A DNA stretch of 64,000 nt, taken from an uncultured delta proteobacterium. GTDB lineage: Bacteria > Desulfobacterota > RBG-13-43-22. Of the stretch, positions 17,208 to 23,454 are shown in pieces. Position 1 is the stretch's first letter. Every line of letters begins with the position of its first letter. The stretch spans positions 1-64,000 of the forward strand of contig CAWBOS010000006.1 of NCBI GenBank assembly GCA_963790475.1, given 5' to 3'. The notes beneath the pieces are model-generated. The model searched no databases. It saw only the letters and a list, made by a program, of their open reading frames with translations, and had not been told where the DNA came from. Made by a program: the position numbers and the translations under genes.

Positions 17208-17765
17208 TTATTTACGTTTCCTTGAGTCTTTCCTCACCCCATATCGGGCTTGCTTCTCCTTGAGATAGAATCCAATTTTTCGTTTGGGCTTTTGTGGCGG
17301 TGCCATGAGCTGCCGGATTGCTTCAAAGACGATCTTGAACTGGCCATCATACTTTTTCTCCAGGTCATCCAGACGTCTGGCCAGATCTTTGTGGGAACCC
17401 ATGATCTCCCTCAGCCGGGTAAAAGTTCTCATAATCTGGATATTCACCTGAATAGCTCGTTTACTATTGAGAATGCTGGAGAGCATGGCTACTCCGTTTT
17501 CAGTGAAAGCATATGGTAATTTTCGGGTACCTCCCCATCTTGATGTTCCAAACTGGAAGATCAAGTTTTTAACTTCTTGATTTGTCAATTGAAACATGAA
17601 ATCCTCAGGGAACCGATCCAAGTTCCGCCTGACTGCCCTATTAAGATTCCCCGTGGTAACCCCATAGAGAACAGCCAAATCACGATCAAGCATGACCTTT
17701 TTGCCTCTTATAAGAAAGATTTTACTTTCAATGATTTCCTGCGGGATTAAATCCTTTTCTTCCAC
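17208..17765 (-). CDS. ORF6N-domain protein (copy 1)
   Basis: [47 protein letters not shown] start after GAGGAGG. Confidence 0.9.
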
Positions 17766-17918
17766 CGGGATCCTCCTCAAATGACTTTTCTGGCTAACAC
17801 ATAATACTTTCGACGGCCCCACAAGTCTAACTTGATGTCGCAAAATGCGACTTCAAATAATCAAATTTTCCGCCCCCTTTCATCTTTGATATTCCAAATT
17901 AGAATCTCAAAGATTTCA

Positions 17919-18078
17919 TAACAAAAACCCATCTTCTTTTCAAAAAATGGGGCCTTGTCGGACTGCTTCATGGACCAGTCTTAAAAAGACAGGATTCGAG
18001 GATTCTAGGGTCCAAGGGGTTAAACTCCTATGTCTTTCATTCGAATGAACAATCTAAAGCATAACCTGTTAAAGTCGA
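17919..18078 (-). repeat. Array element copy B
   Basis: Degenerate promoter (16-bp spacer) plus CTGGTCCATGAAGCAGTCCGACAAGGCCCCAT..ATGGGTTTTTGTT. Confidence 0.85.
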
Positions 18079-18085
18079 CCTTTTC

Positions 18086-18136
18086 TGGTCATCTGGTCTA
18101 TCTAGTCTATCAGGTCTATTTAGTCTATCTGGTCTG
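18086..18136. repeat. 9-bp short tandem repeat (tggtctatc-like)
   Basis: tggtcatc tggtctatc tagtctatc aggtctatt tagtctatc tggtct; related tracts at 18812-18840 and 26733-26762. Confidence 0.8.
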
Positions 18137-21837: not shown

Positions 21838-22039
21838 CCTGATCAAATCAACCAGGTACCTGGAGTTGTTTCTAAGTTGCATAACCTCCAATGCCTTTCA
21901 TCCATCTTTATAGAAAAGGACATTGGCTTTAAACATTTGTTTGGGGTCGGACCTCACCCCTTTCGCGTGGTCCCCCATTTAACAATTCTTTTTAATTGCA
22001 AAGCCTATTTGTAAATTGGCCCACCGGCCAAACCTATAT

Positions 22040-22789
22040 CTATTCCGCGCGTCCCCATTTGATCCTGGCTCTGCATAGTTCTTTACTATCGTTTGCCCGC
22101 CTTAGGCTGCAGAGTTCGCTTTCATTTCTCTGCTCAGATATTACCAGCACCTGGTCATCGAGTATGGCTTCGGTCAGGAAGCTAAGTTCGATCGCTTGTG
22201 GGATTGCCTTTTCAAGCTGATCCGGAGAGTGGCTATCCATAAACCACTGCAGGTACTTCGCCGATCCTACATGTCGATTAACATCGATATCGGAAAAATG
22301 CACCCGAAAGCTTGCCACTTCCCTTCCTCCTTGAAGTTCGGACACCTTTTTCAGATTGGTTTCCATCGCTTCTTTCTGAGGTTGCCAGGGGAAGCCATCT
22401 GTGTTTGGGTCAAAGCGTTGCGGACGACCGGTGGTCTTGTCTAATATCAGCCAGGAGGATGTGGCCGAGACCAGAGTCGCTCCTGAAGGGGCGCTTATTC
22501 TGAAGTCCCGCAGCGCGTAAAGACGCTCGATCCGTTTTCCCCAGGTCTCAATACTGAGCCGGTCTCGCCATTTCGCTTGGGTCGAAACGACCATCTGGAA
22601 CTTTATAAGTACCCACATAAGGTCACGCGCGGAAAGCTCTGCATATCCATATCTTGTGCCATTGGCATGGTTCCAGGCCGAGTTCAGTAAATAGGAGAAG
22701 AGGATATGGGGTCGAAGCCGACCGCAGAGATCGACGTCATAGGATTCGACTATTCGTTTTTCTTTCCAGACCTGGGGTGCTTCAGCCAT
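22040..22789 (-). CDS. Acyl-ACP thioesterase family protein
   Basis: Double hotdog pattern: YDVD, WVL, ETW, SDIDVNRHV. Confidence 0.85.
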   Translation of the reverse strand: MAEAPQVWKEKRIVESYDVDLCGRLRPHILFSYLLNSAWNHANGTRYGYAELSARDLMWVLIKFQMVVSTQAKWRDRLSIETWGKRIERLYALRDFRISAPSGATLVSATSSWLILDKTTGRPQRFDPNTDGFPWQPQKEAMETNLKKVSELQGGREVASFRVHFSDIDVNRHVGSAKYLQWFMDSHSPDQLEKAIPQAIELSFLTEAILDDQVLVISEQRNESELCSLRRANDSKELCRARIKWGRAE

Positions 22790-22917
22790 TGCAGCCTTGC
22801 TCTCTCCTTCCCTTACGAGTCTATTTGATGTAAATCAAAAACAAAGGGGTCAATGCTACGTTTGACTTATTTTTCCATAACTGCCGGAATAACCATTTAT
22901 TGCTCATCGGCCGTACT

Positions 22918-23454
22918 TTACCTGCTCATTTTCCTGCCATACCTCGCCTGCTTTTCCTTCAAATCAAACCCGATTTTTCGTTTGGTTTTCGTCGGCGGGG
23001 CCATGAGCTGCCGGATAGCTTCAAAGACGATCTTGAACTGGCCATCATACTTTTTCTCCAGATTATCCAGACGCCGAGCCAGCGATTTATTGGATGAAAC
23101 AATTTCCCTGAGTTTGACGAAGGCCCGCATAATGCCAATATTAACTTCTACGGCCCGATCGCTATTCAGAATCCCTGAAAGCATAGCGACTCCCTGCTCT
23201 GTGAAGGCCCGAACCTGCTTTGAAAATTTAAGGTCCGAGGATATCACAATTTGTGATATCCTCATAATCTCCTCTCTGTTAAGGAAAAACATAAAATCTG
23301 CCGGGAATCTTTTGATATTTCTTTGAACCGCTTGATTCAGCACCCTTGTTTCCACATTATAAAGATCAGCGAGATCCCGATCCAAGATAACCTTTTGGCC
23401 TCGAATCAAATAAATCTTCTTTTCAATTACCTCTATTGGGATTAAAGATTCCAA
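22918..23454 (-). CDS. ORF6N-domain protein (copy 3)
   Basis: [39 protein letters not shown]. Confidence 0.9.
   Translation of the reverse strand: MESLIPIEVIEKKIYLIRGQKVILDRDLADLYNVETRVLNQAVQRNIKRFPADFMFFLNREEIMRISQIVISSDLKFSKQVRAFTEQGVAMLSGILNSDRAVEVNIGIMRAFVKLREIVSSNKSLARRLDNLEKKYDGQFKIVFEAIRQLMAPPTKTKRKIGFDLKEKQARYGRKMSR

Follow-up and report, generated by a model that had tools for sequence, protein, structure and literature searches.

Auxiliary operators located in coding DNA are a known element of bacterial gene regulation, as in lac O2 within lacZ, gal OI within galE and the intragenic cre sites at which CcpA acts as a roadblock. DNA sites are also found inside the gene of a DNA-binding protein: a parS palindrome lies within the spo0J (parB) gene of the ParB/Spo0J system, and the ori iterons of lambdoid phages lie within the gene of the O initiator. 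In this work, we characterized a palindrome carried at one codon position by three genes of the ORF6N family (PF10543), located in a 64-kb window (the whole stretch of DNA analyzed, 64,000 nt from an uncultured delta proteobacterium; assembly GCA_963790475.1, contig CAWBOS010000006.1, positions 1 to 64,000). The site is constrained at the DNA level and conserved family-wide, and on balance we regard it as the own operator, that is, the cognate duplex DNA site, of the very ORF6N protein whose gene contains it.

The lac O2, gal OI and cre sites resemble the ORF6N site in being palindromic repressor sites within an open reading frame (ORF), 3' of a promoter that may hold more sites, and they act by looping or roadblock, as we propose here; however, they lie in the regulated target gene and not in that of the regulator, they show no conservation at a single codon across phyla, and to our knowledge they neither dictate a peptide nor persist across reading frames. 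ParB/Spo0J is, like ORF6N, a helix-turn-helix (HTH) protein with a palindromic site in its own coding sequence, but parS is a centromere with further copies around the origin, whereas the ORF6N sites were found only in or next to ORF6N genes, and these show neither a ParA partner nor a sequence relation to ParB/Spo0J. In the lambda O gene the sites occupy a part coding for a tolerant linker, and DNA-binding specificity changes with them, which is the arrangement described below; conversely, that gene carries several iterons for replication initiation, whereas ORF6N genes usually carry one palindrome, have no replication genes nearby, and coexist with a separate Rep on small ORF6N plasmids. Among lac O2, gal OI, parS and lambda ori, we know of none that constitutes a family-wide, fixed-codon, frame-independent site in the regulator's own gene.

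In the integration-dependent immunity of mycobacteriophage BPs, the attachment site is tied to the repressor gene (PMC4557955); this is likewise a cis-acting DNA site within the regulator's own gene, but it is a recombination site for an integrase, and our scan of ORFs in the window detected no gene of that kind. Regarding function, for one representative of the candidate single-gene defence PDC-S05, to which the ORF6N copies belong, plating in E. coli B was reported to drop about 1000-fold for T7 and T5 and about 10-fold for T4 (10.1101/2024.09.26.614923). That representative differs in being described with a Virulence_RhuM domain and may be a longer form, and the preprint passages dealing with PDC-S05 mention neither a mechanism nor a palindrome (10.1101/2024.09.26.614923). 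Our search of the ORF6N/KilA-N literature returned no description of the palindrome.

The three ORF6N genes, all on the minus strand, are 65-69% identical to one another; copies 1, 2 and 3 score 118, 119.3 and 102.7 bits with PF10543 (gathering score 27.8 bits), and all three are full-length matches to PADLOC PDC-S05, covering approximately residues 1-165 of its profile PDLC04856 (177 positions). The genes and their intragenic palindromes are as follows; palindromes have no strand, their classes are named after the inner half-site, and their scores are those of the half-site matrix introduced below (pLDDT, predicted local distance difference test).

17208..17765, minus strand: ORF6N copy 1 (PF10543 E 2.3e-34, PDC-S05 E 1.9e-59), aligning with copy 2 from the first residues
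18125..18694, minus strand: ORF6N copy 2 (PF10543 E 9e-35, PDC-S05 E 2.4e-58; AlphaFold2 mean pLDDT 82.4)
22918..23454, minus strand: ORF6N copy 3, TTG start (PF10543 E 1.3e-29, PDC-S05 E 1.7e-51)
17539..17565, no strand: copy 1 intragenic palindrome, centre 17552, TTCCA class, encoding LIFQFGTS, 29.8 bits
18466..18496, no strand: copy 2 intragenic palindrome, centre 18481, TTCCA class, 18.9 bits
23237..23263, no strand: copy 3 intragenic palindrome, centre 23250, TCACA class, encoding RISQIVIS, 17.2 bits

Copy 1 probably starts at the GTG at 17765, where GGAGGA precedes the start; a longer ORF, up to 17843, would cover upstream palindrome sites. The palindrome of copy 1 has 12-nt arms with one mismatch and three central bases (11 of 13 pairs at offsets 2-14), and those of copies 2 and 3 have perfect arms, of 15 and 13 nt respectively, around one central base. 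In all three the centre is the first base of the codon following a conserved Gln, in agreement with an earlier note on this DNA, drawn from the sequence alone, which had located the palindromes at these coordinates and at the same codon position.

The analysis was extended to relatives from one genome per species (at least 598 among at least 602 candidate stretches), of which the best 80 loci, from many phyla, were kept. The resulting set comprised 82 genes, i.e., the three of the window and 79 from 75 of the 80 fetched loci; the remaining five loci, missed by the motif search, were recovered later. A palindrome was present at the homologous place in 81 of the 82 genes, with perfect arms of 10-16 nt in 41 of them; their consensus half-site reads AACTTGAGGTCACAA, around a central A or T, and positions T6, C3, A2 and A9 of the half-site matrix are near-invariant. 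Depending on the offset, Watson-Crick pairing at offsets 2-13 was kept in 60 to 82 of the 82 genes. Across 100 aligned sites 90.6% of the cells were paired and double-sided changes were seen in 13 of the 14 pairs (280 cells); 500 shuffles failed to attain the observed value of even one of the five measures used. Compensatory changes affect the outer arms even though the encoded peptides differ (NLR..TSS, SLR..TLK, SSR..TLK, NWR..TSN, MRI..ISS).

Synonymous-codon resampling of the 82 genes yielded a mean of 5.7 out of 14 pairs versus 12.4 observed, and in 67 genes not one of 1000 resamples matched the observed pairing (the worst case being L035, with 330/1000). Codon-choice entropy at the six scored palindrome columns was 0.38-1.14 bits, compared with 0.99-2.53 bits for pooled usage, and the top codon of conserved palindrome residues was used in 68-93% of the genes, against an expected 14-45%; codon use at conserved columns outside the palindrome was near pooled usage. 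Furthermore, the core GGTCACAA-A-TTGTGACC, or its TCGCA version, occurs in phase 0 except in nine genes where it occurs in phase 1 (L044, L045, L086, L090, which is identical to L095, L093, L094, L096, the third gene in L022, and L075), the encoded peptide being ..ELVTNCDRF.. instead of ..LRSQIVTS.. in those genes. The symmetry lost on synonymous resampling, the frozen codons and the second reading frame thus indicate a constraint on DNA and not on the peptide. The earlier suggestion that symmetry is maintained at the nucleic-acid level, with both arms changing together, is therefore borne out by the broad alignment and the codon-shuffled control that it had called for, in which arm covariation lies far above the amino-acid expectation. 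Its description of the segment as a highly variable part of the protein holds insofar as copies 2 and 3 carry divergent versions, both scoring among the lower sites of a family whose median is 33 bits; it does not hold as the description of a free-floating variable segment, as the DNA is conserved across the family.

In some genes (L025, L032, L059, L076 and L078; proteins P0146, P0170 and P0241) the palindrome unit is repeated, in tandem and in frame, to a total of two to four units, sometimes of different specificity classes, the protein loop being lengthened thereby; more than one unit was present in 11 of 139 representatives.

The AlphaFold2 model of copy 2 displays a helix-turn-helix-like pair (residues 27-34 and 38-47), with long C-terminal helices after it. 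The palindrome of this copy encodes residues 67-76, which take in the last part of helix 62-72 and the first part of a low-confidence loop (block 71-80, mean pLDDT 55). In order to relate protein and site, each protein column was compared with the inner bases (offsets 4-5) of the gene's own palindrome, using 200 shuffles. Of all variable columns, only residues 40 and 43, within the second helix of the pair, stood far above the shuffles: their mutual information with the inner bases was 1.55 and 1.65 bits, whereas the shuffles did not exceed 0.56 and 0.32, respectively. The excess was weaker at residues 37 and 39 and marginal at residue 5. The signal at residues 70 and 73 is trivial, since these are encoded by the very same bases, and variable columns located between helix and palindrome gave no signal, which argues against simple block inheritance. 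The predicted recognition helices of the window and the correspondence found across the gene set are the following:

17625..17654, minus strand: copy 1 predicted recognition helix codons, residues 40/43 = N/R
18554..18583, minus strand: copy 2 predicted recognition helix codons, residues 40/43 = N/K
23320..23349, minus strand: copy 3 predicted recognition helix codons (TRVLNQAVQR), family positions 40/43 = V/Q
Inner half-site TCACA: Q43 in 33/33
Inner half-site TCGCA: R40 and E43 in 13/14
Inner half-site TGCCA or TACCA: R43 in 15/15
Inner half-site TTCCA: K43 in 11/15

Within the window, copy 2 (N/K with TTCCA) and copy 3 (V/Q with TCACA) fit this code, and copy 1 (N/R with TTCCA) is a minority member of the TTCCA class. 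The rule was followed by all 14 hold-out genes, outside the alignment, that fall in the four classes, including one phase-1 gene, and the five genes with N or H replacing R47 all have A instead of C at offset 3. Residues 39, 40, 43, 44 and 47, spaced i, i+1, i+4, i+5 and i+8, would share one face of the helix. At the protein level, and taking the peptide as a stand-in for DNA, 113 of the 117 scorable proteins among 150 representatives of 50%-identity clusters carry the peptide unit predicted from their helix (permuted mean 63.8, maximum 76 in 5000 permutations). A protein word search added nothing independent, as 106 of its 107 scorable proteins, among the 120 closest of at least 8000 matches, were of the N40/K43 class. 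These results place the predicted reader of the site elsewhere than in the peptide that the palindrome encodes, which the earlier note had considered as a DNA-contacting element: the co-varying residues lie in helix 38-47, the encoded peptide lies in the modelled helix end and low-confidence loop, and the nine phase-1 genes specify an unrelated peptide.

Copies of the site also occur in non-coding DNA. With the half-site matrix and a cut-off of 15 bits (the highest score among 97,749 shuffled positions was 9.9 bits), 132 sites were detected in 331,895 nt, distributed as 96 in ORF6N coding DNA, 29 up to 250 nt upstream of ORF6N genes and seven elsewhere, three of these at a gene start or within a tandem unit. 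Promoter regions are populated only in part, most genes being without an upstream site. The six best-scoring sites of the window are all at ORF6N genes, the seventh scoring 1.2 bits; in addition to the three intragenic palindromes, they comprise:

17831..17857, no strand: upstream palindrome of copy 1, non-coding, centre 17844, TCGCA class, 34.3 bits, the best of the window
17883..17913, no strand: second upstream palindrome of copy 1, non-coding, centre 17898, TTCCA class, 23.9 bits
23442..23468, no strand: half-strength site over the copy 3 start codon, centre 23455, 14.7 bits

The first of these belongs to the class of no ORF6N protein in the window and abuts a promoter-like -35 hexamer (hexamers at 17829-17801, minus strand, a consensus match only), and the second shares the class of copies 1 and 2. 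The site over the start codon of copy 3 consists of a good TTCCA half scoring 11.1 bits and a weak one scoring 3.6 bits, i.e., the class of copies 1 and 2 and not that of copy 3. Upstream sites in the family are mostly TCGCA or TCACA; the fact that they are not specifically of the own class suggests control by other paralogues, not simple promoter autoregulation. Likeness between upstream and intragenic sites within a locus was 0.739, versus 0.712 upon re-pairing (249 of 5000 re-pairings reached the observed value), and the two lie 216 to 364 nt apart, with no obvious 10.5-nt periodicity by eye. Searches for an own-type operator upstream of copies 2 and 3 yielded, for copy 2, six half-site matches against 8.0 expected and, for copy 3, no convincing site among 34 loose matches; the latter (up to three mismatches, in the window) exceed the 17.2 expected and were reached by none of 100 shuffles, an excess that is probably a codon-composition effect. 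In phage records, a search with the 35-nt site gave matches only in records that also contain ORF6N homologues, plus chance-level matches in P1/P7 at E = 4.

Taken together, the upstream non-coding copies and the covariation of site bases with residues of the predicted recognition helix support the earlier proposal of a self-encoded operator. The ORF6N protein quite probably binds its palindrome; this binding, dimerisation and the regulatory outcome are the parts of the operator reading that we infer. The face of the second HTH helix (family positions 39, 40, 43, 44 and 47) would read the inner bases of each half-site, with two subunits occupying one arm each. Because the site is internal to the gene, at about 210 nt from the beginning of the coding sequence, the regulatory target accompanies the gene to any new location, and since the palindrome inside a gene matches that gene's own predicted reading helix, the site seems to travel and evolve with the gene. 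Occupancy of the intragenic site would block or loop transcription and result in negative autoregulation, an outcome to which we give roughly even chances; promoter-proximal copies, often of another specificity class, may add control by paralogues, and the site-encoded peptide may be a tolerant helix end plus loop with its sequence dictated by the DNA.

If this is correct, a very large family listed as a candidate phage-defence gene (46,468 clusters at 50% identity match the profile at E up to 0.001) would acquire a concrete DNA target and a simple code, in which Q43 goes with A, E43 with G, R43 or K43 with the C-containing classes, and R47 with C at offset 3. It would also offer a clear example of protein sequence being dictated, across phyla and reading frames, by a function other than coding, which is of relevance for annotation, for codon-usage and selection analyses and for the recoding of such genes, and autoregulation would be built into the coding sequence, thereby surviving transfer to any promoter context. 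A further and doubtful extension is that ORF6N genes form a self-referential specificity system acting like immunity groups, possibly behind the reported PDC-S05 phage protection: helix and site would switch class together, repeatedly; genomes would gather arrays of paralogues of different classes sitting on each other's promoters; a resident protein would shut off an incoming mobile element or phage gene carrying a site of its class; and the operator kept within the gene would make the unit portable without a promoter.

Several observations weigh against the operator reading. Of the 24 upstream sites that were compared with the class of the downstream gene, eight agreed in both halves, four in one and 12 in neither, and the 20 of 48 matching halves compare with 16.0 on re-pairing, 884 of 5000 re-pairings reaching 20. 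Most genes have just the intragenic site, which makes the roadblock or loop logic a conjecture; the same is true of two small Segatella plasmids whose single accessory gene is an ORF6N gene. The modelled helices fit a DNA-binding protein, and the best Foldseek matches are winged-helix DNA binders (Ski/Dachshund domain, MarR family), but these matches are weak (best E 0.14, none at 0.001 or below); no sequence relative was found in the PDB. A tree built without the helix and palindrome columns (80 leaves) was poorly resolved, with six well-supported branches and 33-34 class changes, and a tree-aware test gave one to three independent pairs per test, none in the opposite direction; with so few supported independent pairs the sign test cannot reach 0.05. 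Finally, L035 and L084 lack an intragenic palindrome, and that of L089 has nine of 12 pairs.

An RNA hairpin in the messenger, or in its 5' leader for the upstream copies, controlling stability or translation or bound by the protein as RNA, is one alternative, and arm covariation by itself cannot separate RNA from DNA. The predicted hairpins of the three genes, at -19.9, -18.1 and -10.6 kcal/mol (z-scores -5.7, -5.2 and -1.9), speak for this alternative and, to that extent, against the operator. We nevertheless consider it unlikely, because the mismatches are not those of an RNA stem: at offsets 2-13 the genes display 16 G·T, 30 A·C and 32 other mismatches, with no G·U excess, and the upstream sites 19 G·T, 15 A·C and 26 other, so that G·U is preferred on neither strand and is not tolerated on the sense strand. 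Moreover, the bases themselves are conserved in addition to the pairing, offset 2 is paired in 95 of 96 sites, and symmetry and sequence are kept up to the centre, where hairpin pairing is impossible. In Rfam 15, only a tRNA at 7836-7909 was matched in the window at the gathering score, and 16800-27000 gave no match at E up to 1; the promoter-like hexamers of copy 1 lie downstream of both its upstream sites, a point of little weight. The centre is occupied by A or T in 95 of the 96 intragenic sites and in 28 of the 29 upstream ones. A duplex site with two-fold symmetry would be expected to behave in this way, with no need for inversion, and the alternation between A and T at the centre accounts for that between Ile and Phe after the Gln. 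The evidence thus points to duplex DNA rather than to an RNA stem.

The palindrome might otherwise be a structured-DNA substrate, such as a cruciform or hairpin for site-specific recombination or paralogue gene conversion, an attachment site or an origin. The tandem arrays of ORF6N genes, the two to four tandem in-frame units mentioned above, the 34 class changes scattered over the 80 leaves of the protein tree (poorly resolved as it is) and the integrase or recombinase genes adjoining three plasmid copies would suit such a role, which we still judge very unlikely: no recombinase or integrase gene was found among the 47 window ORFs scanned, no neighbour gene is constant across ORF6N loci, two small plasmids have a separate Rep gene, and the tracking of bases by residues 40 and 43 is left unexplained. 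A decayed ORF6N remnant of the window (see below) starts within the C-terminal helix region and not at the palindrome, unlike what an attachment site or attC would give. The hairpin recombination substrate and the invertible micro-segment that the earlier note had offered besides the operator likewise found no support in the ORFs scanned, in the remnant or in the central A/T alternation, which two-fold symmetry explains. The weakest alternative, in which the symmetry simply follows from amino-acid constraints or from a recent shared ancestry of the three copies, could invoke the fairly conserved family peptide LRSQ[IF]VTS, but its probability is negligible and it is already refuted by the above controls, namely the resampling, the codons frozen only in palindrome columns, the differing peptides with compensating arm changes, the same DNA in two frames and the non-coding copies.

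Other types of palindromic element were also considered. Perfect palindromes with arms of at least 10 nt and loops of up to 8 nt number six in the window, compared with 0, 2, 0, 0 and 0 in five mononucleotide shuffles; two of the six are the sites of ORF6N copies 2 and 3, and the others look terminator-like. One of the latter, at 18839-18869 between copy 2 and the next gene, has 14-nt arms and a G+C-rich stem, and its sequence is unrelated to the ORF6N motif. The ORF6N palindromes themselves were rejected as intrinsic terminators, as only that of copy 2 was flagged, on the antisense strand, the stems are A+T-rich, and copy 3 has no T run after the stem. Inserted palindromic elements of the Rickettsia type show presence/absence polymorphism and are scattered over positions in unrelated genes; this candidate was discarded as well, given that the ORF6N site occupies one homologous position in 81 of 82 genes and is found nowhere else in the window.

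The ORF6N copies lie in an island of accessory genes, which includes an IS110-type transposase, HigB-like and HepT toxin-antitoxin genes and ATPases, the remainder of the window consisting of ordinary chromosomal metabolism genes. The IS110-family transposase gene (DEDD_Tnp_IS110 and Transposase_20; 14793-16052, minus strand) adjoins two short ORFs (16143-16352 and 16482-16700), one with ATPase-domain matches and the other without any match, which may be pieces of a disrupted gene. A HigB-like toxin gene is paired with a gene for an HTH and M78-peptidase protein (23689-25135, minus strand), and a HepT-like ribonuclease gene is found at 25764-26114 (minus strand); such toxin-antitoxin type neighbours are typical of defence islands. 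The decayed ORF6N remnant, at approximately 25534-25735 on the minus strand, retains the C-terminal part with in-frame stops. An intergenic module about 80 nt long occurs five times (16952-17030, 17906-17984, 23594-23672, 26517-26595 and, partially, 25235-25262); its final part, on the minus strand, is a terminator-like hairpin with a T run behind it, and the module had no Rfam match. Because this module stands 3' of each small accessory gene, the island resembles a cassette array, and no integrase was found in the window. A second intergenic module lies beside the first one (17035-17115, 18047-18107, 18733-18833, 25360-25394 and 26695-26755) and contains tandemly repeated 9-nt units (GGTCTATCT-like), which are found at 18091-18132 and 18817-18849.

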